A DNA stretch of 61,153 nt, filler included, from Hausera hauseri (GCA_046269625.1; 10 parts of 10 records of this genome joined end to end with filler, not necessarily neighbours in it); one strand, 5' to 3'; shown: positions 3,235 through 61,153, counted from the whole stretch's first letter. The notes: generated by a model not told the origin, from the sequence alone. Numbers and translations are program-made.

Positions 3235-6200
3235 TCATTTTTTTGTTTTGCTTTGAATAGTAGTATTTTGAAGATTTGGACGAGTTGGTTTTAGTAGAAA
3301 AAGTTTGCTTATATGTAATTTTTTTGTAAGTATTGTATCATTTTCTTCTTTTTCTAGAAGATAATTTTCATTTCTAAATATTTTTGTAATAGTCCATGGA
3401 CCATCATATTTCTTTTGAAAAGTACCTGGATGTTGAAAAATTTCTATATATACTTTATCATTTAATTGTAATTTCTTTGGTGATTTTCCTTTTAAATATG
3501 AACTTTGTGCCGCAAAATATTTTGATTCGTTTTCTGTAATTGCTTGTTGTCTTTCTAAAGCAAGTTCATTTATTTTTTTACGATATTCATCGAATTGTTC
3601 TACATACACTGGATTTTCTGTTGAATTTAATGGCATGTTTATCGGACGACCAAAAAATAATTCTGCTGGAGAGAATTGTGTAACGAGATGTTTTGAATTA
3701 TTGTAATGAAGTTTAAAAATTAAAAGTGCATCTGTCCATCTAATAACATTATCTGTGATGGCAGATATGCTTCCTTTCATAGTACGGTGAATTCTTTCCA
3801 AGAGGCCATTTGAAGCTGGATGGTAAACAGATGTTAAACGATGTTGGATGTTAAGATCTTTGAAAAATGTTTCTATTATTTGAGATGTAAAATTTGGACC
3901 GTTATCCGAGAGAATGATTTTAGGAATACCAAAAGTTGAAAAGTAAATTTTTAATTGTTGAATTATTATATTTGAAGTAGTATTAGCCAACGGAATAGCT
4001 TCCAGAAAACGTGAGTAGTGATCCACTATTGTTAGTATGAAAAACTTCCCATCATGGGACCGAGGAAGTTTACCTACAATGTCTATAGCTACAAATTCTC
4101 CTGGAGCTAAGTGTTGTTTTGAAATTTGTTTTGGTAAAATATTGTTTGATTTTGTTTTATGTTCCATACATTGTTTACATGTGTCACAAAAATTTTTTGT
4201 ATCCAAGTACATTCCTTTCCATGTATATTTTGCATGTAAAAATTGATAGGTTTTGTGTGTGCCAAAATGTGGGATGTGAGCTGCTTTTAAACACGCATTT
4301 ACCAAAGTTGGAGGTATAAGTATTTTATTGGATAAGATTTTATTTTTTGTTTTTTTTGATGTGTTGATGTATTGTTGCATGACCAAATTAGTATGGGAAT
4401 CAATAAAATATTTATTTGTTTTAGAGGGAAGTGTCTTATTTTGTATTTGTTGTCGAATTTTTTGAATATTTTCATCTTGTAACTGGTGTTTTTCAATATT
4501 TAAAATAGTTAAAGCATTATCTGATTCAAAGAGATTAATTGTGTTAAGATTTAAGTTATTATTGGGCATTCTTGATAGAAAATCTGCGGGGTTCTTACAT
4601 CCTGGGATGTGTTGTGTAGTATAGTCAAATTGCTGTAAATATAAAAGCCAGCGTGCAACAATATCAGGTTGTTTAGCAAGTTGAATATGAAAAGTCAAAG
4701 GTTTAGCATCTGTAAATATTGTAAATTTTTTACCATACAATTTATCATGAAAATGTCGACAAGAAGCAAAGATGGCAAAGAGTTCTCGACGAATGGATGG
4801 ATAACGTGCTTCAGCAGGGCTTAATTGTTTAGAAAAGAATTCAATGGGAAAAAATTGTTCGTTATGTTTTTGCATTAATATACCTGAAATAGCTATGTGT
4901 GATGCATCACAAACCAAAAATAGAGGTTTATCCTCCTGAAAGTTTTTTAATGTAGGCTTGTTCAAAAGTAAATCTTGTATTTTTTCAAAAGCTATTTGAC
5001 AATCTGCATTCCAATAGAAAGGAACATTTTTTCTTGTAAGATTTACAATTGGATGCACAACATCAGCATAATTTGGTACCATGTGTCTAAAATAATTAAG
5101 CATGCCAACAAAAGTTTGAACTTGTTTAACAGTTTTAGGTTTTGGAAATTTTTGCACTTTATTTATATTTTCTTCTGATGGTGCAAATCCATTTTTATTT
5201 ACATTAAATCCAAGGTATGTAATTTGTTGTTTACAAAGTTGTAATTTTTTTGGGTCCAAAGTCAAGTTAAATTGTTTTAATTTGTCAAAGACTTGTTGAA
5301 GAATGTTTGTCATTTCTTCTATCGAATCTGCTGCCACAATTATGTCATCTACAAAATATTGGACATTTTTACCTTTTAAATCATTCATGCATTTTGCTAT
5401 TAAGGTGTGGAAATATGCGGTGCTATTTTTCGCGCCAAAAAAAAGTCTGTTGGGATGGTAGTTACCGAACTCACAACAAAATGCTAATTTATGTTTATCA
5501 CATTCACGTAGTTGTATTTGAAAAAAAGCGGATTTTAAATCCAGAACGCTATAAAAGTTTTTACCAGAAATATTTTGCAAAATGTCTGAAATGTTTGGGA
5601 GGCAAATTTTGAATGGTTCCATGATACTATTCAATAAACGATAGTCAACTACCATACGAAATTTAAGATCTTTAGGAGACTGATTTGGTAGAGGCTTTTT
5701 TTTGACAAAAAGAATTGGAAAACTATAATTAGAAGTGGATGGTTCGATTATACCTGCATCCAGAAGCTGTGTTATTTCTTGTTTAGCAAATTCTTTGGCA
5801 ATTTTTGGAATTGGATAAGGCTTAGTTTGTATCGGAAAATTATGAAGTAACTGAATTTGAGGTATTATAGCATCAGTAGAACCAAGAGATTTGTAAGATT
5901 TAGAAAAAACTTGTGAATTATCCAGTAACATATGCAAAAGTGATGTCTGATCCTTATTTGACAAATGTTTTAAATCAAAATCCGTGGGAGAAAGTTCATC
6001 TTTACGAAGTTTAATGATATCAGATAAATTTAGATTATTTATCTGTAAAAAGTCTTGTTTCGGAGGAATCATCTGATCCTGCTGATCATATTGTTGAACT
6101 ATACCTAATCTGGTATTTTTTCTCAAATTGATGTTTATATTAGAATTATTCTCAACAATAGTATAAAATGTGTTTGCCTGCACAGTATGGATGGAAGAAT

Positions 6201-7071
6201 GGAAGTGAAATTCAAATTTTTTAGCCAAAGGAGTAAATAAAATAGTAGAATTATTAGGAATATTGTTTGGTATTTGTAATTGAATAATACTAAAAGAATT
6301 AGGTTGAATAGTTACATTATGTGTAACTTTAGCTATTGGTTGAGGAGTCGTAGTGGGAACAGTTGTTGGAAGTGGTGCTTGAATGGCAGAGTTTTGCACA
6401 TTTTGAGAGGGAGATGATTCCTGATATTCAAACGTGAAAGAGTCTACAATTAATTTATTGTTTTTGGTGTCAATTAAAACTTTATTTCTTTGTAGAAAGT
6501 CATACCCAAGAATGATTTGGTATTGGGATTGCCAGTTGTGCTGTGTCACAAAAAATTGGTTCTCAAACCATCTAGTATGAATTTTGAATTTGAGATTGAC
6601 TGCAGAATGATATGGTATTGTTGATTTATTTAGGGTATGAATGGTGACTGATCGAGATATGTAATTTATTTTAGTAGTATCTTTGATTTGTTCAAGAATA
6701 CTAGGTTGGATAAGGCTCAGATTAGCACCTGTGTCTAAAAGGGCGGGTATATTGTGATTGCCAAATTTTAACATTATTATAGGTAAAGAATTATTTGAAT
6801 TGTGACATGACATAAGGTGGAGCGATTCTGTTTTATTTGCATGATCTTTTTTATTTGACTCTTGATGTTGGTAGTCTTTTTCTCTAATTTTATTTTTTTT
6901 ATCATATTTATTAGAGTAGTCTTTTTTTTGCTTGTCATTATAAGATTTTCTACTTAAATATTTATACTCTTCTTTTTCTTTTAAAGATGGTAAATTTGGA
7001 TTTCGAAATGGTTTATGGGTGCTTGATGAGTGAAATCCAGTATAGTTATATGATGTACAAACACCCTCCAT
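3235..7071 (-). CDS. pol: Ty3/Gypsy Pol polyprotein (PR-RT-RNase H-integrase), intact 1278 aa
   Basis: Protease LLDTGA. RT FRMVVDYRLLN, LDLKSAFFQI, YFVDD. RNase H CDAS..ISGIL..RELFAI..TDAKPL. Integrase HHCC, IDIVGKLP, SDNG, SNGLLER, C-terminal DGPW. Confidence 0.95.
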   Translation of the reverse strand: MEGVCTSYNYTGFHSSSTHKPFRNPNLPSLKEKEEYKYLSRKSYNDKQKKDYSNKYDKKNKIREKDYQHQESNKKDHANKTESLHLMSCHNSNNSLPIIMLKFGNHNIPALLDTGANLSLIQPSILEQIKDTTKINYISRSVTIHTLNKSTIPYHSAVNLKFKIHTRWFENQFFVTQHNWQSQYQIILGYDFLQRNKVLIDTKNNKLIVDSFTFEYQESSPSQNVQNSAIQAPLPTTVPTTTPQPIAKVTHNVTIQPNSFSIIQLQIPNNIPNNSTILFTPLAKKFEFHFHSSIHTVQANTFYTIVENNSNININLRKNTRLGIVQQYDQQDQMIPPKQDFLQINNLNLSDIIKLRKDELSPTDFDLKHLSNKDQTSLLHMLLDNSQVFSKSYKSLGSTDAIIPQIQLLHNFPIQTKPYPIPKIAKEFAKQEITQLLDAGIIEPSTSNYSFPILFVKKKPLPNQSPKDLKFRMVVDYRLLNSIMEPFKICLPNISDILQNISGKNFYSVLDLKSAFFQIQLRECDKHKLAFCCEFGNYHPNRLFFGAKNSTAYFHTLIAKCMNDLKGKNVQYFVDDIIVAADSIEEMTNILQQVFDKLKQFNLTLDPKKLQLCKQQITYLGFNVNKNGFAPSEENINKVQKFPKPKTVKQVQTFVGMLNYFRHMVPNYADVVHPIVNLTRKNVPFYWNADCQIAFEKIQDLLLNKPTLKNFQEDKPLFLVCDASHIAISGILMQKHNEQFFPIEFFSKQLSPAEARYPSIRRELFAIFASCRHFHDKLYGKKFTIFTDAKPLTFHIQLAKQPDIVARWLLYLQQFDYTTQHIPGCKNPADFLSRMPNNNLNLNTINLFESDNALTILNIEKHQLQDENIQKIRQQIQNKTLPSKTNKYFIDSHTNLVMQQYINTSKKTKNKILSNKILIPPTLVNACLKAAHIPHFGTHKTYQFLHAKYTWKGMYLDTKNFCDTCKQCMEHKTKSNNILPKQISKQHLAPGEFVAIDIVGKLPRSHDGKFFILTIVDHYSRFLEAIPLANTTSNIIIQQLKIYFSTFGIPKIILSDNGPNFTSQIIETFFKDLNIQHRLTSVYHPASNGLLERIHRTMKGSISAITDNVIRWTDALLIFKLHYNNSKHLVTQFSPAELFFGRPINMPLNSTENPVYVEQFDEYRKKINELALERQQAITENESKYFAAQSSYLKGKSPKKLQLNDKVYIEIFQHPGTFQKKYDGPWTITKIFRNENYLLEKEENDTILTKKLHISKLFLLKPTRPNLQNTTIQSKTKK

Positions 7072-7080
7072 TAGTTTAAA
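7017..7080 (-). promoter_or_regulatory. -1 programmed ribosomal frameshift signal (gag/pol)
   Basis: Slippery heptamer T TTA AAC (7080-7074), a 7-nt spacer, then a 9-bp stem GGGTGTTTG/CAAGCACCC. pol is in the -1 frame. Confidence 0.75.
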
Positions 7081-7160
7081 TTTGAGTTTTTTCTGTAATA
7101 TTTATTATAATAAGGTCTAGATTGGTAGTTGTGCTGAAAATTCATTCCTCTTCTTAAACC
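7071..7160 (-). pseudogene. gag: Truncated 3' tail of gag (RGLRRGMNFQHNYQSRPYYNKYYRKNSNLN*)
   Basis: A basic N/Y-rich tail ends in TTTAAAC-TAA, overlapping the pol frame at -1. Upstream, the sequence switches abruptly to unrelated GC-richer DNA. Confidence 0.6.
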
Positions 7161-7855: not shown

Positions 7856-7879
7856 GTTTTCATCACCCCGCCATTATCT

Positions 7880-7983
7880 GCTCTACTCCCATTCGCCAGT
7901 TTCCCTTTCCACGATGACGTGTTCTCCTCCCATTGGCTTCCTGCCTTCCTGGAGGGGGGGGTTGGCGCGAAGTCCTTACATCC
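7880..7983 (+). repeat. GC-rich interspersed repeat, likely an LTR 3' part; second copy at 26474-26573
   Basis: About 100 bp aligns by eye at roughly 80% identity (GCTCTACTCCCATT..CGATGACGTGTT..ATTGGCTTCCT..G-run..AAGTCCT). Both copies are at contig starts. Confidence 0.8.
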
Positions 7984-8398
7984 TACTACTGATGTAAATC
8001 AAACTAAAACAACCCAGCTTTACAAAAAGAAAACTCATCGAGACTGCGAACACCAATTCAAACCGAGAAAATTAGAATATCGCCAAGTAAACCAAAGGAG
8101 CAATTAACGGAAGTACATGTATTACGAAAGAAGGGTTCCGCAGACAACATACAGTTCACCACCGCCAGGGAATACCCCAGAATATTGGTAGCTACTGAAT
8201 ATTATAGTCAGCAAAAGGATCAAGGAAGCAATGTTTTTCGTCAAGTTGATGCCCGCAAAGGAAGTATGAGAATACGTACGTCTGGGAAAATCCAAAGCTT
8301 GGGAAATATGTTGCCCCAATATTACAATCAGAAAGGAATGGTAAACTCGTAGTCCCTATGGACAAGTCCGTAAGATATCACTTAAGAAACAATATTAG

Positions 8399-8995
8399 AA
8401 ATACCGATCGACTGGTGAAATTCCCGATTTAGATCGAGATGTCATCAGCGATTGGACCTTAGTGCCCGTGGGATGTGATCCCAAGAAGAGTTCAATAAAC
8501 ATGAAACAAAAAAGAGTATATGGTTATCTATACCAAGATGAAGAAGGACTAGCGATAGAACCCATTGAAATAACAATAAGAGTCGATTTGGACGACGAAA
8601 ACTGGGAAAAAGAAGAAAATGAATGCCCGGTGTGTGAGGCCAATTTAAAATAAGGTTATGTAGTTCTAGATAACTTGGATTGTGGACACAAGTACTGTCG
8701 AGATTGTCCAGAGAAATGGACGTTAGAAAACGGTAAAACCACGTGTCCTGTGTGTAGAGCAGAAGCGACGGACTTGAAGAATTACTCAAATGGCAATTAT
8801 ACCACAGTGGCCAGAATAAAGCCTCAGTTTACTTACGAGTTGGAGACAAACCCTAGAGAAAATCAAGCCGGTTCAAGTTTGGTACCTAGCTTAAGGCAGC
8901 GTATGGATTTATTACGGACAGACCATTTAAGGGTCACCTCTCCTGACACAATAGGCACATCCGAGGATGCCGCTCAGGGAGGAGAAATGTTGTGA
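8399..8995 (+). pseudogene. C3HC4 RING-finger ORF at the 3' end of an LTR element, one in-frame stop (8651-8653)
   Basis: ORFs 8462-8653 and 8675-8995 share a frame: CPVC-x14-CGHKYCRDC-x12-CPVCR. The ORF crosses the PPT and stops 8 nt into the LTR. Confidence 0.85.
8976..8987 (+). promoter_or_regulatory. Polypurine tract
   Basis: AGGGAGGAGAAA lies immediately before the TGTT that starts the LTR. Confidence 0.8.
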
Positions 8996-9734
8996 ATTAC
9001 TGGTAATAAAAGAGTGGTGGCATATTCCCTCGTTAATTAAAGTGACAAATGGTGGAGGTAATAAAAAGAGAGAAGCGACCTTCGATTATTGTAAATATAT
9101 AGCATTAATAAATTCATTAACTGTAAATACGCAGAAATAATAACTATTGTGTAGGAATGTTTATTGATAGTTAATAGCTAGAGTTGGTAATAAATTGTAT
9201 GTGTATCAATAACTCTCTGAAAGTGAAATGAAAAGAGAATTAAATCTAGTAGCGAGTGCTATAGAAAGACTATATATATTCAAGAGAATCAGACAAAAGC
9301 AGAACAGAGGAAACAAGAAAAGTGAGTCGAGAATTCTAAATCATCAGAAAACGAGAAACAGCCATTATATTGATCTTATTGATTCTTGGTGACGAGGTTG
9401 TATTTATTGTGGTAAAGATAATAAATGTTACTTTTAATTTCTTTTGCTTCTAAACTCAATATAGTTTTCCCTTCGCTTTTTAAAAGCGATTTGACTTCAT
9501 TAGGATTAAACTCTAGACTTAAACTATATAGATAAGAGGAAGAATTGAATAACGTGACGCAAGCATTTGCATTCAGTACCGGCAATAGTGTTCTAAAAGA
9601 AATTATATATAAGTTAGTCACAGACAGTCTATTCGAGAACGATAGACCGTACCTGCATATAACTCAAAAATAAATTTACTAAAACTATTGTTATATAGAG
9701 GGAGTTTGTGTAATTGCCACCCCAATATATAACA
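8988..9734 (+). repeat. LTR (747 bp) of the gag-env element
   Basis: TGTT...AACA termini between a PPT and a PBS. The 3' third is homologous to the two solo LTRs on C8. Confidence 0.88.
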
Positions 9735-9736
9735 TT

Positions 9737-9754
9737 TGGCGACCATCGCAGGAC
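9737..9754 (+). promoter_or_regulatory. Primer-binding site, tRNA-Arg(TCG)-type
   Basis: TGGCGACCATCGCAGGAC lies 2 nt after the LTR end. The pattern TGGCGACC..CAGGA is complementary to the metazoan tRNA-Arg(TCG) 3' end. Confidence 0.8.
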
Positions 9755-10086
9755 AGTTTGTAAATCGCTAGACTTTACTGTTGAGAGTTAAATACATACC
9801 GGTGAACAGCGCCACTTACACCGAACAATTTTGATATAGTTGGAAAAGAAAATTAAAATTGAGTACATAGGATATTTAACGGGGATAAATAACGTTAAAA
9901 TTGAGAACAAATATTGATAAGTCAAAGGTAAACCCTGTATTAAAGGATAATTCACCCATACGTCAAACACGTAGAAATATATACAGAGGCACACAAAAAT
10001 TAGATAAACGTTCAAATTCAGAGAACAGAATTGAGTTAGACGTCATCGAGCAAAACAAGCAATTTAGAATCCCACTTGAGAAGTAA

Positions 10087-13000
10087 GAAATCAATAAAGC
10101 AAATTTAGAGATAAATTACGCAACTAATATTGCAGCAGATAACCCACCAGTAGCGAAGAAACTAGACATTTTTACCTTTGATTCTCTGAATCTGCCATCA
10201 TATGATGGTGACCCGGACGGGCTTAATGAATTTTTGAGAACTTATAAGTTACACGCAGAAGGTGTCAGTCTCACCCTTGAAGTAATGATTAAACGCTTGT
10301 CATTATATTTGAAAAATTTAGCCGCTGACGCTTATAGTGAGCTCACTAATGATGAGAAGAAATCTTGGTCTTCCCTGGTAGCAGCATTAAACCGTAAATT
10401 ATTTCCGACAGTAACGCCACAACAGAAGCTTATGGCATTTCAAAATAGAGTGCAACAAAAGGGAGAATCGGTAACCCAATTTGCATTTGCATTAAAGAAA
10501 CTTGCTAATAGTTATGTAAGTACTTTGAGAATAACTAATGTAGCAAAAGCTAAAACAGACGCAGAACGCGATGCTGCGGAAAAGTCAACCCCGCCAGAAT
10601 TAGACGTCTTGATGTCAACTCAATTAATTAATGGTATTTGGTCCCGAGATTTAGTTAAACAGTTGATTTTGGCCAGACCTGAGAATTTCAAGAAAACTCT
10701 GCAATTGGCTCAAGACTTAGAAATGGCACTCGATAGATATGCCAGACACAACAATAGAAATGATAGAAATAATGATCGAAACGACCGCAATGACAGAAAT
10801 CGGAATGACAATCGTGGAAGAGATGATAGACGATTTAATGAAAAAAGAAATAGTAATAATGACTACAGGAGTAGTCAAAATAATAGTTATGCTAATGGCC
10901 GAAATATGAACAAGTCAAATTCCAATTCGAATAGAAATCAAAGAAACTACAAAAGTTCTAACTATTCAAATCGTGATGATGATAATCGAAATAATGATAG
11001 TCGAAGAAACGCAGATAGTACACAAAGTTTGCCAAACCAGTATAATAGAGGCATAAGTAGGTCTAAGTTACCTGTAAATGAAGATGGACGACAGAGAGTC
11101 GGCAGAAATGGAAATTTAGTTTGTTTTACTTGCGGTAAAGAAGGGCATATTGCAAAGTCATGTCCAAATCCGCGTAGTGTTTCATTTACTGTGCCCAATA
11201 AGATTAGTATGATTAAAGTTAATGAAAACTTAGAAGCAAAATATGGCGTTCGTGGAGATACAGGCACTATCATCGATATACAAGATTTAAGAAAATTCTT
11301 AGATGCTCAGCCAACTACTGCGAACTTACAAATTTTAATGGCCAGAAGAGAGTACGCGGATAAGTTGAGGTTACTAGAAGTATATCATGGCTTAGCCGAG
11401 CCAGAGACCGAATACGAATGCTCTATAGCACCGAAACAAAGTGATATGACACGGAAGAAGAGTGTTCCAACGAACATTAACCCATCTGATAAACCAGGCA
11501 CATCGACGGCGGTCGACTTAGACGAAGAACCTGAGTTTGCAGTTGAAAAAGTAACTAAGCTTACTGAAGATGATGCAGCAGAAAAAGAATTTATGGAGCC
11601 ATTAATACTGAAAATTACAAAAAATAGAGGCCGTAGCCCTTCACTAAAAACCAAGCGCAGAAGTCGTTCACGTTCCAGAATAACCAGAGAGAAAATTGAA
11701 GAAAAGGAAAACCCGAATGTCGATACACCAGAAATTGGGCCATATACACCTGTAGGAGTAGTGGAGCCGATAGAGTCAATTAATGAAATTAACGAAATCT
11801 GCCCACTTCCCATTAGTGAGGAAGAAACGGCAGACAATGACGATTTCAATTCAAAAAAGTGGAAAATCCGACGCTCATGGAAAAACGCCGACGAATTAAA
11901 GAAAATGAGAATTTATTGTTTAGAGCCCGAAATATTACAACGAAACTTAGAGAAACTCAAGCAGATTAGTGAACAAGTCGACATATCCGGGAAAGAACAG
12001 CAATACGCCGAGAAGTTATATAAAAGCTTGAAATTACGTAGCGAAGGGAAGTTCGTTGAAGCAATCGATGTGAGGCAGCCTGAAGAGGTGTCCCCGGAAA
12101 TATTATTAAAATGGAAACACGAATTGGAATCGTGGATTAAAAGTGGAGTCGAGTTTGTAGAAGGATGGAATAAGAACAAAGATAGAATTGACGTAAAAGT
12201 CACTGAGGCTCAAACGCTATTATCTACTCTAGAAGAGAACCCAAAACTGAAGAGAGTAGTCCGTAACTTAGAACGTATCATGAACGAAATTCGGTATGCA
12301 ATGATTAAACACCTTAGAGAAAAATCAGTTAACCACCGCAGTAATATCGATTTGGAAATATTGGGTATAGACCCGTTGGATGTTCCTCCCCTAACGGAGA
12401 TGATAAAAATCGCATTCGCTACGCCCAAACAATATACAAACCTGGAAAATCGGCTGAAGATAGAAAATGAGAAGCGAGCACAAATTTTTAGCTTGAGGAA
12501 CCGGATCATGTTCCCAAACCACGAGGATACTCAGTATACAATTAAGGCTTGTATCGTGGAATTAGACGAGTATAGGGATGAAATTAATTATATCGGTCGA
12601 ATCATGAATTTTCTAAAAGGACCAGACGATGAGTTAGAAGATGCCTATAAGATGCTAGATAGAGCCATAATGGCAAAACCTGTAATTACAAAGCAATTGA
12701 CGGAATGGTCCGAGTTAGTAACGCGACTAACCAAATTGGTAGAAGATCGTAAAGCGGAATTCCCGCAAAGCGATCCAACGGTGAAAAAGCAACTAGAGGA
12801 AAGTGCCCACGATTTGGCCACGTTGCGAATAGAAATAAATATCCGTACTCAATTTGAAGCGCTACGACAACTAAAATTTATGGAAAAGGAACGAGAAGTG
12901 TCGACGATGGAGGTAATCTACAAATTGATCGAAGAGACGAATTTTACGGAGAAACGGAGTATGATTTACGATGTAAATTCAAAGTTAAGGGTTGTCCGGC

Positions 13001-14247
13001 TAGAAGGGATTCAATACTTAACTGGAAAACAAATCGATGAAATTTCTGCACAAGACATTGAAATTCTGGATATTTGTCCAGGGCATCGAGATACGTTAAC
13101 GGACGCAATAAAGTTTCTGCATAGACCTCAAGAATGGATGTTGGGGTCAGATCAGAATTTCCATACCAGGTTGATAGAAATAGGAAACGACCCACATTTT
13201 AGTTTTCAGGAACACAAATTCGTGAAGAAATTGTCGGATGCGATGGACCCTGATTCCAAGGTCATAAATGAGATGTACGAGTTAGCGTATTTATTGGTAG
13301 AAATGGCAGAAATCAGTGACGAGCAGATGAGGCAATTGAGGCCCAAGATACAGAAGGTAGAAGAAACATCTATCAAAACAAAACAAAGAGCGACAAGGTT
13401 AGATGAATTAACAAAAGAGCTCGCAGTCTATCGTAACAAGTATGCTTTTACCAAAACAGAGATTAAAATAAACGAGAATTTGTACAAAGATGGCAAAAGG
13501 ATGATTCTCGAGTTAGCAGATTATCACCAAAAAGGACTCATCGACTCTAATGAATTCGGCGTTTTACTGAAAATGATTCAGTATGCCTGTGGAAACGGGG
13601 TAGGATTCCATACTACACAGATGAAAGAAATACAACCCAGACTGAAAGAAATTAGAAAAACTGTACAAAGAGTAAGAACAACTGGGGTAGATGACAGATT
13701 ACCAGATGTCGGGAACGACCCAGAATGGTACGCATACTTCAACGAAATTCTGACCGAAAAGCCCATGACTCCAGTACGATTAAACGAAACAGAAACAAGT
13801 CCACAGGATAAACGGTTTAATGTGGAGATGCTATTGGACTTAGCGCTAACTGAAAAGGATTTGACTGAATTAATTGACGTAAATATTACTGAGAATCAAT
13901 TACGGCAACTTATTCCAACTCTATCTAAATTTTCCAGTGAGAACACGATTTATAGCACGGTGCCGAAGCTCTTGATAAGGAAGTATGCTAAAACGTTAAA
14001 GAATAAATCCGTAGTAACGATGAAAGTGATGTTGTCATCCGAATGGATGGACGAGAAAGAATACGAGTTGACTACCTATTCCTATGTAAGGGATGTAAGA
14101 GAGTGGTTAGTAAACAATGGGGCAACGAACGAGCTGAATTACAAATTTTATTTTAGAGGTAGAATACTTGATGACCTCGAACAACTAATAGAAGTCGACA
14201 TTATTCCTGACGAAACAAATCGGGTAGTGGTAGTAATAACCAACTAA
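10087..14247 (+). CDS. gag: Gag (capsid + CCHC knuckle) with a ~1000-aa C-terminal extension ending in a ubiquitin-like domain
   Basis: The frame is open from 10087. LPSYDGDPDGLNEF capsid start, QQKGESVTQF, an N/R/D-rich linker, then CFTCGKEGHIAKSC. No protease motif was seen in the extension. Confidence 0.9.
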   Translation, partial: EINKANLEINYATNIAADNPPVAKKLDIFTFDSLNLPSYDGDPDGLNEFLRTYKLHAEGVSLTLEVMIKRLSLYLKNLAADAYSELTNDEKKSWSSLVAALNRKLFPTVTPQQKLMAFQNRVQQKGESVTQFAFALKKLANSYVSTLRITNVAKAKTDAERDAAEKSTPPELDVLMSTQLINGIWSRDLVKQLILARPENFKKTLQLAQDLEMALDRYARHNNRNDRNNDRNDRNDRNRNDNRGRDDRRFNEKRNSNNDYRSSQNNSYANGRNMNKSNSNSNRNQRNYKSSNYSNRDDDNRNNDSRRNADSTQSLPNQYNRGISRSKLPVNEDGRQRVGRNGNLVCFTCGKEGHIAKSCPNPRSVSFTVPNKISMIKVNENLEAKYGVRGDTGTIIDIQDLRKFLDAQPTTANLQILMARREYADKLRLLEVYHGLAEPETEYECSIAPKQSDMTRKKSVPTNINPSDKPGTSTAVDLDEEPEFAVEKVTKLTEDDAAEKEFMEPLILKITKNRGRSPSLKTKRRSRSRSRITREKIEEKENPNVDTPEIGPYTPVGVVEPIESINEINEICPLPISEEETADNDDFNSKKWKIRRSWKNADELKKMRIYCLEPEILQRNLEKLKQISEQVDISGKEQQYAEKLYKSLKLRSEGKFVEAIDVRQPEEVSPEILLKWKHELESWIKSGVEFVEGWNKNKDRIDVKVTEAQTLLSTLEENPKLKRVVRNLERIMNEIRYAMIKHLREKSVNHRSNIDLEILGIDPLDVPPLTEMIKIAFATPKQYTNLENRLKIENEKRAQIFSLRNRIMFPNHEDTQYTIKACIVELDEYRDEINYIGRIMNFLKGPDDELEDAYKMLDRAIMAKPVITKQLTEWSELVTRLTKLVEDRKAEFPQSDPTVKKQLEESAHDLATLRIEINIRTQFEALRQLKFMEKEREVSTMEVIYKLIEETNFTEKRSMIYDVNSKLRVVRLEGIQYLTGKQIDEISAQDIEILDICPGHRDTLTDAIKFLHRPQEWMLGSDQNFHTRLIEIGNDPHFSFQEHKFVKKLSDAMDPDSKVINEMYELAYLLVEMAEISDEQMRQLRPKIQKVEETSIKTKQRATRLDELTKELAVYRNKYAFTKTEIKINENLYKDGKRMILELADYHQKGLIDSNEFGVLLKMIQYACGNGVGFHTTQMKEIQPRLKEIRKTVQRVRTTGVDDRLPDVGNDPEWYAYFNEILTEKPMTPVRLNETETSPQDKRFNVEMLLDLALTEKDLTELIDVNITENQLRQLIPTLSKFSSENTIYSTVPKLLIRKYAKTLKNKSVVTMKVMLSSEWMDEKEYELTTYSYVRDVREWLVNNGATNELNYKFYFRGRILDDLEQLIEVDIIPDETNRVVVVITN

Positions 14248-14715
14248 CAGACTAAAGAAGAAGCTACACGTAAAGCCAAAACAGAACAATGCGTAGGACA
14301 AATTATGGGAGTCCGCGATGCTGCAATGTACTTTGAATACTTACAAACGGATGAAGACAAGGAACAATATGATATTAATTTGGTACCATTAAGTGAAATA
14401 ACCACTAAAAGCCAGAAATCAAAACGTCCGGTAGGTAGGCCTAGGAAACCACGTGAGGAAGTAGATTACAACGGAGAATTGATTATGGAATTGAAGCAAA
14501 TGTCGATTCCGACCTTTAATACGGAGAATGAAAAATTGAATGAGCTAACGAGAAATTTGATACGAATTGTAAATTATTCAAGCCTTCGAGGTGATGTATT
14601 AGAGGATAGAGAAAGGATAATTTTCGAAGCAGCCAAAACAATGAGGAGTTCACGTTTTAAATTATCAAAAAGCAGCTTAACTGACGAAGCGGTAATAGAA
14701 AGGATTATGGTGTAA
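14248..14715 (+). pseudogene. In-frame continuation of the polyprotein with an AT-hook-like motif (KRPVGRPRKP)
   Basis: Same frame as gag and env, bounded only by single TAA codons at 14245 and 14713. Confidence 0.65.
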
Positions 14716-17150
14716 AATACTAACGAAAAATTGAGAAAGGTATTGCTATATTTAGCCATTAAAATAAATCCTAATCGAGAGAACAAAATCAATAGAGCTA
14801 TAAGCCTAGCACGGAAAGCAGCAAGGAAGATGCCCTGCCTAGTAAACTGGTCGAGACTATTTGATAGGGAAGAAGATAAACGAAACAATAATAAATTTGA
14901 CGATATGCTGCGTAATTTGACGATGGCGGACCTTAGAGGCCAAAAAGTCGAATCAAATTGGCTAATTAGCCTACTCACTCTAATAATGCTAGTTAAGCAC
15001 ATAAGCGCTGTGACTATCTGTGATTGTGACAAGTTTAAATTAGGACAAAAATACTCCTTAATGGATCTGAAAGTATGCGAGGACGCCAGACCACACAAAT
15101 TAGAAACAAAAGAGAAAAGTTATTTCCTGTACCAACAACAAGAATTGATATCGTTGGATGGGATGAAATGTATGCTGAGACGATCGCGCAGTATTTTTCA
15201 CTGTGGCTTGATTCATGGACACTCATCTATAATTAAACCAACAACCCCATTGATTGCGATGAATTTAGAACGCCAACACTGTAAACAAGCCAGAGAAACT
15301 GGAAGGATACAATGGGAGAGCATGCAACTGGAATTGCAGCCGGGAAAAATAATAAGAGCATGTAAAGTAGTGGCCCGAATGTTAGATATGCATAGCGGAC
15401 ATTGTAATGGAGTAGAGTATCATACCGGGAAAGGATTAGAATGAAACGTAGTGGTTGTGGATTTCTACGAAGCAGAAATGCGTTCACAAAAAGTAATGTT
15501 CCACAGTATCACTAAGTTATATACCGAAAATCAGAAATGCCATTTACAAGACGGAACCTGTGCTTTTAGAAGCTCGGTTATAATATGGGAACATCCATCT
15601 GGACGAAATTGTAATTTCATTAAAATCAAAGAGTTAAAATTTAATGAAACAACGGGAAAGCGATATGTCGACAAATCAGAAACAAATTTGAGATCACGAG
15701 AATATGTGTCAGAGCACTCTACACCTACTATATTAATTTCAGACCAACATGGATTGAAGTTTATAAAAAAAGAAATGATGACTCGTTGCGATGTGGTGAT
15801 GTTTGCTACAAACTGTGAAGCGTTTTTCGTAGCGGAAACGGAAATAAGCGCGAAAACGTATAAGTTAGAAACACAGGATGTACGTATCGAAGATTACCTG
15901 AAAAACAGAGATGATTTCTTTTACTATAAAGGACAAGTAGGAATAACAGAATTGTATCATAAAATGATAATGAATGACTGCAAATTGGACACGGAAATTA
16001 TGCGAACTAAAATGGCTCTGATATATGCAAATCCAGAATTGGCTTCTCCAATAATTCCCATGAGAGAAGGAATTTTTGGCCGAGTAACGGGTGAAGTACT
16101 ACTTACCTACGAATATGAGAAAAGAGATGTACCCATTAACGTAGAAGAAAAATGCTGCATTCAGGAACTTCCTGTTATTTACCAAAATATGCCGAGACTG
16201 GCTACACCATTGACAAAAGTATTGCTGGATAACGCCACACAACCAACCATTCTTAAGAATTGTAAAGCGAGCCTAGGAGAATCCATGTTTAGACGAAGTG
16301 AGACAGATTGGGTCAGCTTGCCGAATGGAGGAATCATTGCCGCACCGAATAAATTGACGGGAACAAATCTCGCGAAAGGAATCACGGACGATAAATTTCA
16401 CGACACCTCATCAAAAGGTATATATCGACCAAAGGAAATTGAAGCCTTCAGATAATTCCTCGCTTTTCCGAGACAACGAACACATGAGTTAAATCGAGCG
16501 ATGGCCTCTGTAGTAGATGATACGCGATACCAAGCTAGATGGGAATCTTTATTCAGTGTGAATCATTATCAACGAGTAACAACTGAAATACTTTATAAAA
16601 TGTGGGGAAAATTTCTGATATTCGGACAAGCTGCATCTGGATTCTTAGCGATATATTTTCTAATACAAATGATCAAGGCAGTGATCCAAGCCGTAATAAA
16701 TGGGTATAAAATATTTACGTTAATTGGATTTTCATGTAAAGTTTTAAAAGCGATCATAACGCCTTTCGGGAAATTCTTGAAAGCCTACGAAGAAAACAAA
16801 TGGAAATCAGACTTAGAACGCCATGTCGGCTACCATAATCGCAAACGAAGAGGAAGACCAATATTCCTACGAAAGCGAAAATTCACACAAAACATTACAC
16901 AAAGAAACAATTCAAACGATGACGAGCCTAAGGGAGGAGAAGCACTTCCAGGAATAAATAAACATAAATATACTCTGTCGTTAAAGCGCCATTGCCCATG
17001 TTGCCTCCTACCGCCCCATTCTACGAAGACAAAAGGTCAATGGGCTCGTATCAGACGGAAATCTATAAAAGGACAATTAACGTAGAAGACCCTTACGAGG
17101 GAACAAAACGTTACGGAATTCTACGGAAAATGTGTTACCGACAATCCGCA
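14716..17150 (+). pseudogene. env: Chuvirus/gB-type (class III) envelope glycoprotein with internal signal peptide and TM region; two point stops and a late frameshift
   Basis: Signal WLISLLTLIMLVKHISA, then the Cys pattern CDC..YSL...C, C..R..FHCG..HSS, C.G..Y....*NVVV, C..QDGTC....IIW, C.QELPV, GIY..FP, MWGKFLIFGQAASG..TM. The TGA at 15442 sits where Trp is expected. Confidence 0.85.
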
Positions 17151-17250: not shown

Positions 17251-20200
17251 TAAGATCTTTGCTCACTGTGGCCGAGGACTCCACGGCACTGAAAAGTTAG
17301 CCGAACTGGCAGACAAAGCTTATGAAATGCTGCACTCACACACAGCACCAACTGTTTCTGAGACATTAACAACAAACCACTAACAGCAAAATGCATTGAT
17401 GCAGCAACAAATTGCGCAATTACGCACAAACAATGAAATTTTGCAAAGAACAATTAATAACATAAACGAGAAATTAAATGAGTTAACGCTGCCTCGAAGA
17501 GGTTTTTCTAGGGCTGCTTTCCCTAATGTATTTTATCAACGACAAAGACGGTCGCCTTCGCCCGCGCGGTCGTCTATTTGTTACTATCACGACAAATTTG
17601 GTAACAATGCTCAGAAATGCTGAATCGGTTGTAAATTTTACTCTACCGATTTTAATACAAATAACATCGCTTGCATCTATCACGCAAAATTTGGAACAAA
17701 AGCACAAAAATGCCTACCTTGCTGTAACTACAACACGCACAATAAAATCAACACTACTAAAGTCACACAAAATAGCAGGCCAAACTCACCAGCTACGAAA
17801 AACTGATTTCGCCGCTAGGACACACGGCAAGTTCTAGCAAAGGCTACAACCTGCAAAAAATAGCCGACACATTTCCTTTGCTGGATTCACGTTGGAAGCA
17901 GAAGTCGTCACTCCAACAAAGCAAAACATTAATTTTCTCATAGACACTGGCGCAACAATCTTTTTACTGCCAACAACACAGCACATCCAAAACAATTTCA
18001 CTTCAAAAAAGCAATTGTTCACTGCGTCCGGTGAACCTTTACAAATTTTTGGTGTTACCAAATTAACTTTTACACTTCCAAATTTCCCAAACGCATTCAC
18101 TTGGAAATTTACAGTAGCCAATGTACGCACACCTATATTGGGTTTAGACTTTTTGTCCCACTATAATTTGCTTGTAGACTGAAAGCGATGCTTCTTAAAG
18201 AGTGGAAATAATTTTAATCAAATTAGCAGCATTTCGGTGACAACCCGGGCGATCGTTTCCAGCAAGTCAAAACAAAAGGATAGAACTTCCGATTTAAATT
18301 ATTTTTATAATCATCCATTATATAGAAAATTTTCTTAAGGCAACAAATACGATATTGCCAACTGCATGACACCAATTACTGATAATACAGATGCCAATAC
18401 CATCTTCAACACGAACATTCTGCACCTAATACCATCTAGTCACAACACCTGGTCTACAAGTCATACCCTCAACTGCATCTAGTCACAATGCGTCGACACC
18501 ATCTGAAAACTTCTCATCGTTGCTCTCTGACTTACAGCAATATATTTCGTCTTCCTGCACACGTCTGTTGCAAAAGGACAAATCATTCGTACCACCTCAA
18601 TCCACCTTTCATCACATAGTAACAGCACATCAAAGACCATTTCGTCAAAAGGTCCGCCCGCTATCGCCTCACCGCAGACAGGCAGTGGAGGCTGAGTTTC
18701 TCGAACTGGAAAAATCAGGAATAAACAGAAGATCCAAATCCACTTGGTCTTCACCACTACGTGTGGTTCCAAAAAAAGATGGTACCTTTTGCCCATGCGG
18801 TGATTACCTCCAACTCAACATCATAACAACAATGGATGACTACCCTCTACTATTAATCAACGATGTCCTTCACAGGCTCCATGGTTAGACCATTTTTTCC
18901 TGCATTAATTTACACAAAGCATACCACCAAATTCCGATGGCCCCAGCAGAGATTCCGAAAACGACTGTCATTACACCTTTCGACACTTTCGAATACCTTT
19001 TTATGCTCTTTGGACTCCGTAGCGCTTCCCAGACCTTCCAAAGGCATATTGATACAGTTTTCTCAGGTTTAGACTTTGCTTATCCCTATATCGATGATAT
19101 CCTCATTACATAATCTTCCTCGAAACAACACTCCGAGCACTTACGTTTAATCTTCCAGAGCTTGCACCAAAACAACTTGAAAAATAATTTCTACAAATGC
19201 TCTTTTCTTCAACATAAGGTAAACTTCCTAGGACATGTTATCAGCTCCTCCGGATATTCACCTCAGCCAGACCGCATCGCAAAGCTCAAAAACATACAGC
19301 TACCACGTACATCAACAGAGATGCATTCTTTCCTCGGAACCTTGCACTTTATTCATAAGTATATTCCACCCTGCTCCACTCTAACCGCTCCATTTGCATC
19401 ACTAAGCTCTGGCAAGAAAAAACAACCTATTCAGTGGACCGCCAAGCTAGTCAACGCTTTCGATCACCTTAAAGATAATCTAAAAACCGTTGAAATCCTG
19501 TCCTATCCCAACTCCCATGAAGAACTCTTCTTAATCACGGATGCATCCACAACAGCTGCAGGTGCTGTCCTCCATCAAGTCAAAAATGGATCCCATAAGC
19601 CATTAAAATTCTTTTCTCGAAAATTCACGGCACAGGAACAAAGATATTCCACCTTTGACAGAGAGTTGCTTGCAATGGTCCTTGCCGTAAAACACTTTAA
19701 GCATCTGCTAACCGCACGAACCTTTACAGTACAAACGGACCGCAAGCCCTTGCTTCAAATTCTCACCATGAAATCGCCTTCTCCACGTCAGGAGAGGCAA
19801 ATATCGTATTTGTCTACATTTAATTTTAAAACTGAGCACCTAAACGGAGTCGACAATTTAGTAGCTGACTTTTTGTCCCGATCAGTCAGATCGACTGATT
19901 TTACACAAATTTTTCCTCAATCCAAACTTCAACAAAACCAGCCACCTACTGGCATCCTTAGATCTTTTAAATCGTGCAAAACCATCGACGGTGTGGCCCT
20001 TGACACCTCCAAACCTAATAATCCTAAAGTCATCCTTTCTGAATCGCTTCAAAAAGAAGCATTCACAGCATCCATTTGTTGCACTATCCTGGTGCCAAGG
20101 CCACTTTTCGACTCTTACAACGCCAAGTAGTATGGCCATCGATGCGCTCTGACGTGCAGGTTTGGGTTAGGCAGTGTGTGACATGCCAAAAATACAAAGT

Positions 20201-27830: not shown

Positions 27831-28099
27831 AGACGATTTACCCACAGATGAATGAAGAAGAAAGTCTTTACGTTATTCCAAAATCTGTATTAATCGATTC
27901 AGTCACCTCACCTACGCAAAACTCTCAATCTCTTGTTATCCGTTATCAGAAACCCGACTCATTCATCAGACCCACCGACGAAATGCATTAAACCCGGTAA
28001 TAACTTTTAAGTATAAAACGGAGGTCCGAAAATGATGTTGGAGTAAGCAGATTTCCAAGTTGGTGTTGACACTGAAGAAAATGGGTAGAATACTCGAAT

Positions 28100-31000: not shown

Positions 31001-31657
31001 GAAGTAAATACTGATATATCACGAGTGTTCAAAGAAAATTCACAAACGTCTACTATGACAATTGAAGCACAACCTGCAGTGTCTAGTGAAGAGAAAAACT
31101 TGACTGAAACATCCCAGCAGGATAAAGATACTTCCGAAGCTGTTAAAAGTAAAACAAATGATCCATATGTGTTGCAGAAACCGAAAACGTCTGATAAAGA
31201 TGAAAATGATATCAAGTCGGAATTAAATAGCTCTTTGAATAGTAAGGCGATTCAGTCTTTTACATTTTTAAGTGAAGACGAAAGCAAAATGACGAGTACA
31301 GTGAAGAATAATATGGCGGAACAAACTGAAACTTCCGACGCAGTTACATCGATTGTTGATTCAAATGATTCTTCACTGACAAAAGTAGAGTCTATTCCAA
31401 CGAGGCATTCAGATTATTCAGAAGACCTAAATTTTAAGCCTAAAAACTTTATTCCAAAAGTACCTTCTGATAATGTATATTATTTAACGTCTGTTCTTGT
31501 TCATTCCGGAAGTGCATATGGTGGTCATTATATTTGTTATAAAAAAACAGGTGGTCAGTGGTTTCTGACTAATGATTCATGGATTTCGCCAGTTTCATTC
31601 AAAGAGGTATTACGACATCAAGCCTATATATTATTTTATGAAAGGCTGAACGAATAA
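28100..31657 (+). CDS. Ubiquitin-specific protease (peptidase C19) C-terminal part with a very long S/E/D-rich repetitive insert; N-terminal Cys box not seen
   Basis: His box [40 protein letters not shown], and AATAAA at 31711. Confidence 0.8.
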
Positions 31658-56282: not shown

Positions 56283-59200
56283 ATACTTGCAACCTCAATA
56301 CAGCTTCGTCCATTTTTAAATCCGATCGACCTCGCGGATAATTGGGTAATTATTATTTCGTCCAGTAATGTTTCATTCATTTCATGTCTGGTGGGAATTC
56401 GTATGGTTCGTACTAATTTAGTATATTTACTTCGATAGTAATCTCCTTTTTTCTTTATAATCGTAAGGTATACATTATGGAGGCCTGAATCTTGCACTAC
56501 ACATTGCGTTTCATTGATCCATGGATGGATTAAACAATCATAGTTTCGTTTATTAGGGTTTCTGTCATTATCGTCCCATGGTATCAATTGTATTCCTATT
56601 AGATATTCTGGAGTCATTCGTCTTGACACGCTCCAAATCACACATTTTTCACCTTTCCTTGTATACGTTACTTTATGTCGTAAGCTCTTTAGCAATAAAT
56701 CTTCATTTATGGCCACAGCGTGGCGTATTTTGGCGTGCTCGATTTCTTGTTTTGTCAATTGGCTTAAAACTGTGGGCATTAATATGAGGAATATCAACAC
56801 GATATATTTCTTTATTCCATGGAGTTTATAAGGGATTTGTGTTTCGTCTACTTTTTCGCTGATACACCGAACTATCTCTTGTTCTTCTTTTCTTAACTTA
56901 CTCTCTTTAGCTGCTGGTTTGCATCTATTAACATGGACTTTAAGGGAGACATTATTTTTCTTTAAACAGATATTAGGTAAATCTACTTTTTCAACTTCAT
57001 ATGGCCCTTTATATGGCCTATCTAGTTTTGATGTCTTTCCTCTCTTATTTAGTGGCGTATACAGCATCATCTTATCGCCTACTTTGATTTTTGGCTGTTT
57101 TGTTTTTTCATCATAATATTTCTTATATTTCATCTTATAGTCCTTTTGATTTCCTTCTATTATCTTATACGCTAACTGGAGTCGTTCTTGCATTAATTGT
57201 TTGTATTCTTCTATCTCCATCAAATGAGAAGTAGGTCTCACGTTAAAATCTAGGTCAATGGGTAATCTTGCGTCTCTAAGGTACATCAAGTAAAATGGCG
57301 TTTCTTTGGTGGCTTCATGAACAGACGTTCGGTTTACAAAAACACATGCGTTGATATATTCATCCCAATCATCTTGTCTGATATTTACTACCGTTTGTAG
57401 TTTTCCTTTCAAATCACCGATATATCTTTCAACCATTCCGTTATTTTCTGGATGTCCAGGCGTGGATCGCAGTTTTAGTATTTTCATAATATCATATATG
57501 GCCTGCATTACATTTCCGGTTAAGTTGGATGCTTGATCGGTTAAGAGAATTCGAGGAGCTCCATAGTTAAACACTATATTTTCTACGAATCTTTCAGCAA
57601 TTGTTTCTGCTTTCATGTCCGCCATGGGTAAGGCAACCACCCAGCGAGTAAAATAATCTATAAAAACTAAGATGTATCTATTCCCGTTCCTAGTTAGTGG
57701 TAAAGGACCAGTGATATCCATGGCTGTAAATTCAAATGGTGCAGGTGGATTATCCCACACTTTAAGGGGAGCTTTGAATTTTGATCCTGTATTTTTCCTA
57801 GTGGCGCATAGTTTACAACTTTCGCACCATTCCTGCACGTCCTTTATCATGGTAGGCCAAAAATATTTCCGTTTTAATTTATTTATCGTCTTTTTCGCTG
57901 ACTGATGTCCGCCTAGTAATCCATCATGGTATTGTGTTAATAGAACTGACCTATTTTTCCGTGGAATTACTAATGATGGTCCATTTTGATGAATATAATA
58001 TAAGAATCCATCTTTTTCTTCGTATGCCTCGCTAAATCGGGCTAGATGTCTAGCCAATTCTTTGTTCGTTGGCAATAGTTTGTTTTGTATATAATTTCTG
58101 ATCGCTTTTATATCAGGATCTTCTTGTTGATTCTGTTTAATCTTTTCTATTGATCCATCCATACTCCAGACTGCTGCTATCACTTCTTTCTTTGTTTTTG
58201 ATTCATCTGTCATTCTTGACAAATAATCTGCATTCGCGTTTCGTGTTCCCGGCTTATACTGGAAGTTTAATGTATAGGGCTGTAATTTAAGAGCCCATCG
58301 TAGTAATCGACTATTTGGATTCTCGTGTTGTTTTAGCCATTGTAGTGGTCGATGATCAGTGTATATTAGTAGTGGCTTATTTTCACTGATGTAAGGTGAA
58401 AAAACTTCTAGGGCAAATATTACTGCCAGCAATTCCTTTTCGATTACTGCGTATTTCTTTTGGTGTTTGTTAAGCTTTCTTGAAGCATAAGCCACTGGAT
58501 GCTCCTTGCCATCTTCACCTTTTTGTGACAATACTGCTCCAACTCCGTAGTCACTTGCATCCGTTGCTAGTATGAATGGTTTAGTAGTATCTGGGTATAT
58601 TAAGATTGGGGCGGTTAACAATCTATCCTTTAAGTGTTCGAAGGCTTTTTGGCAATCGTTTGTCCAAAATACTTTTTCCAAATCTTCTCGTAACAATTCG
58701 TATAAGGGCTTGGCTATTTTGCTAAAATCCTTTATAAACCTTCGGTAATAATTGGCCAGTCCTAAGAATCGACGTAATTCTTTGACCGTAGTTGGTTTCG
58801 GGAAGTCTTTGATCTTTCCCAGTAACTTATCTTGAGGCCTTACTCCATGTCTATCAACTCGATGTCCGAGGAAATCCACTTCTGCCTGGGCAAATGAACA
58901 TTTCTTTGGGTTTATCTTCAATCCCATTATTTCACATCTGTCAAAGAGATCTTGTAAGTCTTTCAAATGTTGTTGAAAATTCGATGATGCTATTATCACG
59001 TCATCGATGTATACCAGAGCATGGGGTGCATCCAAGAGTAACAGTTCGGTTCCTCTTTGAAACGTGGGTGGACCATTCTTCAATCCAAATGGCATCCTAT
59101 TAAATTCCCATAGTCCTTCGCCTATTGAGAAGGCTGTTTTCGGTTTATCCTCCTCTTTTACTTCTACTTGCCAGTATCCTTTTTGTAAGTCGATAGTCGT

Positions 59201-61153
59201 AAATATAGTTGATCCATGTAATTTATCTAATATTTCGTCAATTCTGGGTAATGGATACGTGTCTGTTTCCGTTATTTCGTTCAATGCTCTGTAGTCTATA
59301 CAAAATCTCATAGATCCATCTTTTTTCTTAACCATTACTACTGGTGCTGTCCATGGTGAGCAACTTGGTCTAATTATTTTATTTTCTCTCATTTCTTGTA
59401 TTATCTTTCGAGCTTCTTGCTTCTTGTCATAAGCTAATCGATACGGTCTTTTCTTTATGGGTCTATCCTGTCCTTCTTTTAATTTAATACTATGTTGTAT
59501 TATTTTCATTGTTCCTAAATCGTAATCATTCTGCGCAAAGCGATTATTATTTTTCTCCAACAGCTGGATTAACATTTGTTTTTCTTCTTTGGTTATGATG
59601 TCACATTTTTGTAATTTTTCTGCCCAGTTGATCTTAATGGCTTTCTTTTCTTCTTTATTTTTATTTACCTTTTTCTTCAGCTTTTTCATCATCATCTCCT
59701 CGATTTTATCCACATCTGAAGTTACCAAATTAATTTCGTCTCTCACTATTTCTTCGACCTTTGTTGCTTTTCCCAGCCTAGTGTTCTTCCTCAATCTTTT
59801 CTCTTTAGTTCCTGTATTGCACATTCTCAGATAGACCTGTCCGTCCCTTACTCTGTCAACATGCGGTGCAACCAAAATTTCATATTTTTCCATTATTTGG
59901 GGGGTTGGTTCAAAGTAAATAGTTTTCATTAATACTTCTTTTTCCAATTTACCGGGTACTACTATTTCAGTACGTGGTGGTATTATAATATCCTCCATTA
60001 TTGCAACCATACTCTCATTTTGATCTTCGTTAAATACCTTAAGTTGTCCTGTTTTTACATCGAGGTATGTATTTTCTAATTGTTTTAATATGTCGCAACC
60101 AATTAACATCTCGTTGGTTAAGTTTTCCGCTATTCTTACGGTATGTTGTATCGTTTGATTGCAGATCTTAATTTTGGCATCCAAAACCATCTTGATCTCT
60201 TCTTCGGTACCAAATGCTCCGATATTTACTAGTGTTGTTTCCGGTTTCCGTAGTTTTCTCTTTAGTTCTCTTGGTAGTAAACTTTTTCCCATAATCGTAG
60301 TAGTCGATCCTGTGTCTATTAGGGCCGTCACTGGATATCCGTTTACTTCTATGTCTATCTCCGGTCTTGGGGTTGATTGTGATTCGTTTTCATCATTCAC
60401 TTTACATGTTGGTTCTCGGTTATATGGCGTCGGGTTTGCGCCATAATTTTGTCTCATCTGTTGCATTTGGTGTGTGGGGTATAATCCTATATGTTCCACA
60501 TAACGAGGAGCTGATGGATTTGCAAACATTGACTCGCTATAGATTTGTCCATGGTATTCATCTGCCGGGTCCAACTGGGGTATATCCGTTATTACTTTTC
60601 GATTATACCTTCTTTTTTGTGATTTTAACGAAAATCGCTTTAATCGGGTTATGTATCTATTATTCTTCGGCTTCGTATCTGTGTTATCGTCATTATAATC
60701 TCGACCGTTTAGTGTGCTATATGGTGAATTCCTTTCAATATCCTTACTTTTTTCCTTAAGTATCTTCTTTTTCCATTTCGCGTCCTGATTCGCTAAAAAA
60801 CAACTAGCTACCGCAGGGATTATTGCTATTAATATCTTCCATGAGCAGCCAACTGCTGCATGTATGCCATATGCCTTTCCAAGCGCTGTGAATATTGTTC
60901 GCAGAGCGCTTATAATAAAATATATAGCCAAGAATCCTGATGCTGCTTGACCGAAATATAAGAATTTTCCCCACATCTTTTCCATTACGTTCTTTGTAAC
61001 CTTTTTAAGGTAATCTCTTCCCATTAGGTTTTCCCATTGTGGTGAGCCTTCGCCATCCCACATCACTCTTCTTGTTAGCTCCGTTATTACTCTCTGTCTT
61101 TGTTGAGGAAACAACAACATCCGCCGATAATCTTCCAGGTTTTGTTGGGTATA
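56283..61153 (-). CDS. Uninterrupted polyprotein open at both contig ends: Env C-terminus/TM - PSAP linker - PR - RT - RNase H - IN - signal peptide - ectodomain (Ty3/Gypsy-type)
   Basis: The N-terminus aligns with the C2 glycoprotein (KMWGKFL.FGQAASGFLAIYF). Then ALIDTGS, RFCIDYRALN, MPFGLKN, VYIDD, TDASDYGVGAVL, HHCC, MDITGPLP, TDQ, NNGMVER, KGPY, and finally YIVLIFLILMPTVLS. Confidence 0.93.

Follow-up and report, generated by a model that had tools for sequence, protein, structure and literature searches.

How does an element that places an env gene directly after gag, with no pol between them, express its proteins, and do the stop codons in its reading frame reflect decay or regulation? 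These questions are raised by a long terminal repeat (LTR) retroelement of Hausera hauseri (GCA_046269625.1). The window analysed (61,153 nucleotides) is composed of ten small contigs joined by N linkers, and the element lies on the contig at 7856-17150 (9.3 kb). With a probability of roughly 0.85, this contig carries a decayed member of a highly repeated Ty3/gypsy LTR retroelement family in which a single frame encodes Gag, cargo domains and a chuvirus/gB-type Env; the element is likely a compact relative of the Burro elements of planarians, and its intact members probably encode a single Gag-cargo-Env-Pol-accessory polyprotein. Coordinates of the features are collected in Table 1.

One reading frame from Gag to Env

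The frame from 9889 to 17082 spans 2,398 codons with five internal stops (10084, 14245, 14713, 15442 and 16453) and terminates at 17083, whereas the other two forward frames contain 250 and 228 stops over the same span. A preliminary description of this DNA had proposed open reading frames (ORFs) of a single frame, split by lone stops, behind an LTR and a primer-binding site and with no pol between gag and env, and all of this was confirmed: the LTR has its TG at 8988 and its CA ending at 9734, the primer-binding-like site begins at 9737, and no protease, reverse transcriptase (RT) or integrase signal was found between gag and env in this frame. The order of encoded features is Gag capsid, an Asn/Arg-rich stretch, a CCHC knuckle (the only CCHC motif in the frame), an extension of approximately 930 aa, a weak ubiquitin-like domain, a GRP motif, a helical region, a signal-like segment, a Monjiviricetes-type fusion glycoprotein and a membrane anchor. 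The open stretch ahead of the first stop is probably the N-terminus of Gag; given how dense stops are locally, 65 consecutive open codons would arise by chance with a probability of approximately 0.003.

The Env assignment rests on matches to Monjiviricetes_fusion (PF24664) in three pieces between 14716 and 17082 (E-values 5e-12, 1e-17 and 6e-17); comparison of the ectodomain with PDB sequences gave nothing meaningful. Hydrophobic segments occur in the frame only at 14956-15030 and 16609-16770, with none earlier, and a hydrophobic core (1.7-3.3) is present at the equivalent place ahead of Env in all 12 long relatives examined. Beyond the stop at 17083 the contig continues for only 65 bases and breaks off inside the Env tail, without reaching pol. 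A second frame, open from 16968 to the contig end, contains a PTAP motif, and the tail of a related element, C10, contains PSAP; neither tail frame aligns with the C10 tail better than chance (525 and 351 of 1000 shuffles). A frameshift in the Env tail near 17083 is possible.

Stop codons and contig depth

Two public runs (X1 and X2) contain related DNA, and the contigs of these runs allowed stops to be compared with other genomic copies, as the preliminary description had suggested. Contig depth pools different subfamilies and should not be taken as a number of copies; by this measure, stop 14245 is lost in 2,727 of 2,814 (97%, 63 contigs) and stop 14713 in 197 of 211 (93%, 13 contigs) in X1, and stop 15442 in 5,402 of 5,450 (99%) in X1 and 112 of 112 in X2. 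Because most of the sampled depth lacks these three stops, they represent damage to this copy. Between 14185 and 14775, no indel reaches a share of 45% or more in X1, and 22 of the 40 differences listed (40 of 60) fall at third codon positions (p 0.004), an excess that fits coding constraint across both 14245 and 14713. Where this copy has the stop at 16453, alignment with C10 shows a sense codon. Decay, which the preliminary description had suggested for two of the stops, is supported for 14245, 14713 and 15442. The copy at 9889-17082 is inactive and decayed.

Depths over the coding region are in the thousands in X1 contigs, versus 28 in the middle of the LTR (9096-9405), from which it follows that the family is highly repeated; the LTR middle is single-copy-like, and the LTR start is highly repeated along with the coding region.

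Env is followed by Pol in relatives

A HMMER search with the Env region returned 610 proteins at an E-value of 0.001 or lower (150 listed), so that the failure of three word-index homologue searches with the same region to find anything reflects their sensitivity. The best Env relatives are long proteins with Env inside them. Domains were scanned in 14 of the best 16, two short fragments being excluded: a protease or RT follows Env in the same protein in 11 of the 14, a Gag or knuckle match precedes Env in four, and an RT or integrase precedes it in none. A pol between gag and env in full-length relatives would, according to the preliminary description, have refuted its interpretation; none of the 14 scanned has an RT or integrase there, but one distant match, P0153, runs against the pattern in having an integrase ahead of Env. 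Continuation of Env in frame into protease, RT, RNase H and integrase is seen in relatives only, and the in-frame fusion is kept across relatives that are just 24-32% identical. P0019 (2,146 aa) joins a knuckle, Env, protease, RT, RNase H and integrase in one protein. P0018, which has the Gag that best matches the one found here, has Gag, knuckle, ubiquitin-like domain, GRP motif, Bcl-2-like domain and Env in the same order as here, with weak matches to the cargo (E-values 0.03-0.06).

Within the window, C10 shows what may lie beyond the end of the contig. Its stop-free frame encodes, in order, an Env C-terminus, protease, RT, RNase H, integrase, a second hydrophobic segment and a further domain without a Pfam match. 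The Env of C10 is 41% identical over 112 residues to that of the 9889-17082 frame, a divergence which indicates that the two are different elements. The giant Gag-X-Env-Pol-accessory polyprotein of the preliminary description is supported in its layout, since Gag, extension and Env share a frame here and relatives run on into Pol and a second hydrophobic segment; its proposed size of more than 4000 aa goes beyond the sum of at least 3,801 aa for this frame and C10, which are two different elements.

Several further observations were made on these proteins. The part of C10 past the integrase (56283-56820, minus strand) consists of a signal-like segment and an ectodomain of approximately 150 aa without a Pfam match. 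Two to four aspartic-protease-like domains stand in a row after Env in P0004, P0006, P0008, P0009, P0011 and P0014. P0005, an Env-Pol relative of 2,627 aa, is labelled by NCBI as a hypothetical protein of a Flavobacteriaceae metagenome-assembled genome, and is likely to be mis-binned animal DNA in a metagenome.

Modules between the knuckle and Env

The extension of approximately 930 aa is rich in E, K, R, Q and L (38-45%) and has no BLAST match in the 150 relatives selected by Env. It is covered at a depth in the thousands in every bin by contigs of the public runs, and accordingly is family-wide.

The region after the extension resembles ubiquitin-like proteins by several measures: its first Atlas match was at 0.91, with PF11976 on 22% of members, and the score of a two-sequence profile built from relatives was reached by three of 500 shuffles. 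A single-sequence fold was of low confidence (predicted local distance difference test, pLDDT, 43), and a fold search gave no match at an E-value of 0.001 or lower. A chromodomain-like appearance of 14290-14400, noted by eye, was dropped as it had no Pfam support. A GRP motif similar to the one found here, which we take to be AT-hook-like, precedes Env in five of 12 long relatives (P0006, P0008, P0009, P0017 and P0018).

The helical region ahead of Env lies where relatives carry a Bcl-2-like domain, itself matched weakly (E-values 0.001 in P0007, 0.055 in P0018 and 0.2 in P0004). The region had no Bcl-2 match in Pfam, and a PDB sequence search gave nothing meaningful. A four-sequence Bcl-2-like profile built from relatives neither singled it out among 587 ORFs nor scored it above shuffles (105 and 317 of 500), in a test weakened by the stop inside the region.

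The LTR and a probable upstream element

Only one LTR is present on the contig. Its 3' end (340 bp) has two 65%-identical homologues in the window, at 48561-48237 and 49749-49433 on the minus strand, with the same end point. These two pieces are 1.2 kb apart, and each is followed by unrelated DNA without a primer-binding site. The first 12 bases of the primer-binding-like site differ at two positions, by eye, from an Arg 3' end given in the supplement of PMC13524379, which makes a tRNA-Arg type likely; no tRNA genes were found within the window. On the other side of the LTR, the RING-finger ORF is probably an accessory ORF at the 3' end of an upstream element, and together with the purine tract it makes the LTR look like the 3' LTR of that element as well. 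A 114-aa open frame without a Pfam match (8008-8349, plus strand) lies 5' of the RING-finger ORF.

Table 1. Features of the retroelement contig and of the related element C10 (positions in the window)
Feature	Coordinates	Strand	Evidence and remarks
RING-finger ORF	8399..8995	+	One stop at 8651; zf-RING_2 E 1.5e-9 with X at the stop; also matched in the unbroken piece 8654-8992
Polypurine tract	8976..8987	+	12 purines, then TG; directly adjoins the LTR
LTR, TG...CA	8988..9734	+	747 bp; between upstream purine tract and primer-binding-like site; CA at 9733-9734
Primer-binding-like site	9737..9754	+	Starts 2 nt past the LTR end
Open stretch before first stop	9889..10083	+	65 codons, no ATG, no Pfam match
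Gag capsid region	10186..10737	+	Retrotrans_gag E 0.003, below cut-off; 31% identity to P0018 Gag, E 8e-18
Single CCHC zinc knuckle	11122..11163	+	zf-CCHC E 7e-6 (Pfam)
Charged extension of ~930 aa, probably helical	11170..13950	+	Best whole-region Pfam E no better than 0.09
Ubiquitin/SUMO-like domain, weak	13999..14220	+	Rad60-SLD_2 E 0.053, ubiquitin E 0.14, ISG15 E 0.042; none past curated cut-off
GRP motif, presumably AT-hook-like	14425..14454	+	Motif at 14434
Helical region, split by a stop	14470..14900	+	All-helical low-confidence model, pLDDT 42; place of Bcl-2-like domain in relatives
Internal signal-like hydrophobic segment	14956..15030	+	Hydropathy peak 2.05, just ahead of Env
Chuvirus/gB-type Env ectodomain	15010..16608	+	PF24664 matches; stops at 15442 and 16453
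Env membrane anchor, two hydrophobic stretches	16609..16770	+	Hydropathy; like pattern in C10
Env tail	16771..17150	+	Main frame stops at 17083; second frame open from 16968 to contig end
C10, related element on another contig	56283..61153	-	Stop-free frame, 1,623 aa

Proposed expression of a fused polyprotein and alternative explanations

The order of hydrophobic segments, together with the standard behaviour of signal anchors and stop-transfer sequences, suggests how such a polyprotein might be handled. Gag and the cargo would be made in the cytosol, and the internal hydrophobic segment would send Env into the endoplasmic reticulum (ER). Signal peptidase would free the N-terminus of Env, leaving Gag and the cargo held at the membrane by the hydrophobic segment, and the Env anchor would stop transfer, such that Pol would be cytosolic and released by the protease of the element. 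The second hydrophobic segment past the integrase would start a further, accessory membrane protein. In this way Gag, Env and Pol would be delivered to one membrane in equal quantities, with no need for splicing or frameshifting. Threading of the polyprotein through the ER in this manner is plausible.

Other modes of expression can be envisaged. Env might be made mainly from a separate spliced or internally started mRNA despite the continuous frame, in which case the hydrophobic segment would be a conventional N-terminal signal peptide. Drosophila errantiviruses generally express env by splicing, there are methionines 11 and 17 residues ahead of the signal core here, and five of 12 long relatives have a methionine within 30 residues of the core; the other seven have none in the 30 residues before it (methionines within the core being uncounted), and an in-frame fusion kept at 24-32% identity would be needless if Env were always made apart, which leaves this explanation improbable. 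We consider it a little harder still to accept that the Env tail contains a programmed frameshift or stop which makes Gag-Env the main product, with Pol made in smaller amounts or missing altogether, as in a non-autonomous gag-env element. The overlap of the main frame with the open, PTAP-containing second frame could be read this way, and no nearby indel appears among the 12 of 50 indel entries listed, but C10 and 11 of the 14 scanned relatives read from Env into Pol without interruption, and one further frameshift is to be expected in a copy already decayed. Regulated readthrough at 14245 or 14713, offered in the preliminary description and here considered as a means of setting the ratio of Gag to Env plus Pol, is rejected for the family as sampled in X1: 14245 does directly follow the ubiquitin-like domain, where a domain boundary would be plausible, but most of the sampled depth lacks each of the two stops, and in relatives P0017 and P0018 the corresponding region is uninterrupted.

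A different kind of alternative concerns the contig itself, in which the junction of RING-finger ORF, polypurine tract, LTR and primer-binding-like site could be an assembly chimera of collapsed repeats instead of a true tandem insertion. The assembly is fragmented and the family highly repeated, 60 records carry different sequence before 8935, and none of the contigs listed spans the LTR. Against this, depth at the LTR middle is like that of single-copy DNA, and there is a 289-base contig that differs from 8138-8426 at a single position; a chimera is on balance unlikely.

Several points weigh against the fused polyprotein as the explanation of this locus. The contig does not extend as far as pol, so that the evidence for a link to Pol comes from other elements, and in P0153 an integrase lies ahead of Env. 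No in-frame ATG occurs ahead of 10285, and no start codon was found preceding the capsid. The comparison of copies, drawn from contigs of mixed subfamilies, covers stops 14245, 14713 and 15442, and neither 10084 nor 16453 is among the 40 of 2,364 entries listed. The main frame also stops in the Env tail at 17083, a break that may or may not be specific to this copy. The ubiquitin-like assignment is weak, the Bcl-2-like assignment failed both the Pfam and the profile tests, and the number of knuckles differs from that of Burro (see below). Processing and topology are deduced from segment order and general membrane behaviour.

A more speculative extension of the fused polyprotein, which we think doubtful, is that a Bcl-2-like domain has been captured and that its hydrophobic tail also acts as the Env signal. 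Cleavage would then leave Gag tail-anchored in the ER instead of making matrix-type membrane contact, and a 930-residue helical domain of no known kind, with ubiquitin-like and AT-hook-like modules, would stand between capsid and anchor as a membrane-tethered assembly scaffold new among retroelements.

Other features of the window

A stop-free frame running off a contig start (21901-24168, plus strand) comprises a beta-rich stretch, a membrane segment, a tail, a second hydrophobic segment and, by eye, a DEDD-exonuclease-like region. Three sub-pieces had no Pfam match and the whole matched only DUF4381 (E-value 0.0025); it may represent the accessory region at the 3' end of a Burro-like element. 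The window also contains an unbroken gypsy pol of 1,288 aa (3235-7101, minus strand), a decayed gypsy pol (17800-21400, plus strand) and a long interspersed nuclear element (LINE)-type element with an ORF1-like frame and an endonuclease-RT (43425-47300, plus strand). Two genes are host-like: a single frame of 1,193 aa with a very long acidic insert and the C-terminal part of a ubiquitin hydrolase at its end (28076-31657, plus strand), and a POP1 (RNase P/MRP) gene in two frames (53627-55755, plus strand).

Relationship to known elements and significance

The novelty implied for this layout in the preliminary description is not upheld, for the Burro design was published in 2019 (PMC6431247). 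As far as that source describes them, Burro/GYPSM1 elements are giant gypsy-like LTR elements of planarians in which env lies in frame between gag and pol in a polyprotein of 4,873-5,140 aa, with the one-ORF order gag, knuckles, Smc-like, Ubi2/SUMO-like (PF11976), BCL2-like, env and pol. The same account relates the env to mononegavirus fusion proteins and includes RING cargo, copies in decay that contain stops, two or three knuckles, MATH, BIR and ankyrin cargo, a dUTPase-like segment between protease and RT, and an internal region of up to 25 kb (PMC6431247). The element described here resembles Burro in having gag with a CCHC knuckle, a long cargo region and env in the same frame as gag, and in the RING-finger ORF that adjoins it (in the upstream element). 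Four weak signals that agree with one another suggest a candidate ubiquitin/SUMO-like domain of PF11976 type ahead of the helical pre-Env region. Unlike Burro, it has one knuckle, and its 930-aa extension has no assigned domain. No Pfam match to Smc-like, MATH, BIR or ankyrin domains was found in the 7856-17150 contig stretch, where the element is incomplete; in C10, 59741-60040 has no Pfam match, and its resemblance to dUTPase is by eye only. The 9889-17082 element is likely best called Burro-like; strict membership of Burro goes beyond the present evidence, given one knuckle, an unconfirmed Bcl-2-like domain and a partial element.

A second group with this order consists of GAG-ENV-POL elements with HSV/gB-type Env, described from Platyhelminthes, Nematoda and Bryozoa, e.g. 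Smed_errantivirus_1-6 (PMC13524379). Smed_errantivirus_5 and _6 have spans of 16.9 and 18.0 kb there, probably including 3-kb flanks. Features of this type found here are an LTR of form TG...CA with a primer-binding-like site, Gag with CCHC, and a gB-type Env between signal and anchor, with Pol downstream of env in C10 and a protease or RT there in most of the scanned relatives. The likeness to the elements of PMC13524379 extends to a gB-type Env flanked by signal and membrane segments, high copy number and the gene order gag-env; by eye and unscored, the Env is closer to the rows of Platyhelminthes_C1a (planarian) than to nematode rows in that source, and the element is probably of flatworm origin. 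As far as the text there goes, it mentions no cargo between gag and env, whereas cargo is present here, and it does not specify a single ORF for gag, env and pol. Non-canonical endogenous retroviruses of nematodes (Sacco et al. 2022, as cited in PMC13524379) have env ahead of pol. Their nematode hosts set them apart from this element. Sacco and colleagues reportedly described a continuous gag-env-pro-pol ORF in these viruses, and we know of no long cargo region in them.

Particular to this element are the extension of approximately 930 aa, for which no homologue was found, and an LTR that it shares with a probable upstream RING-bearing element; the rest is known design. The literature searched held no test of how fused Gag-Env-Pol proteins handle topology or product ratios, a subject that Sacco 2022 and Grohme 2018 may address. 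The element adds one more abundant family of Burro-like type, in which the pre-env stops that were tested (14245 and 14713) are settled as decay and not regulation, and it bears on the wider question of how Gag-Env-Pol fusion elements manage membrane topology and protein ratios.

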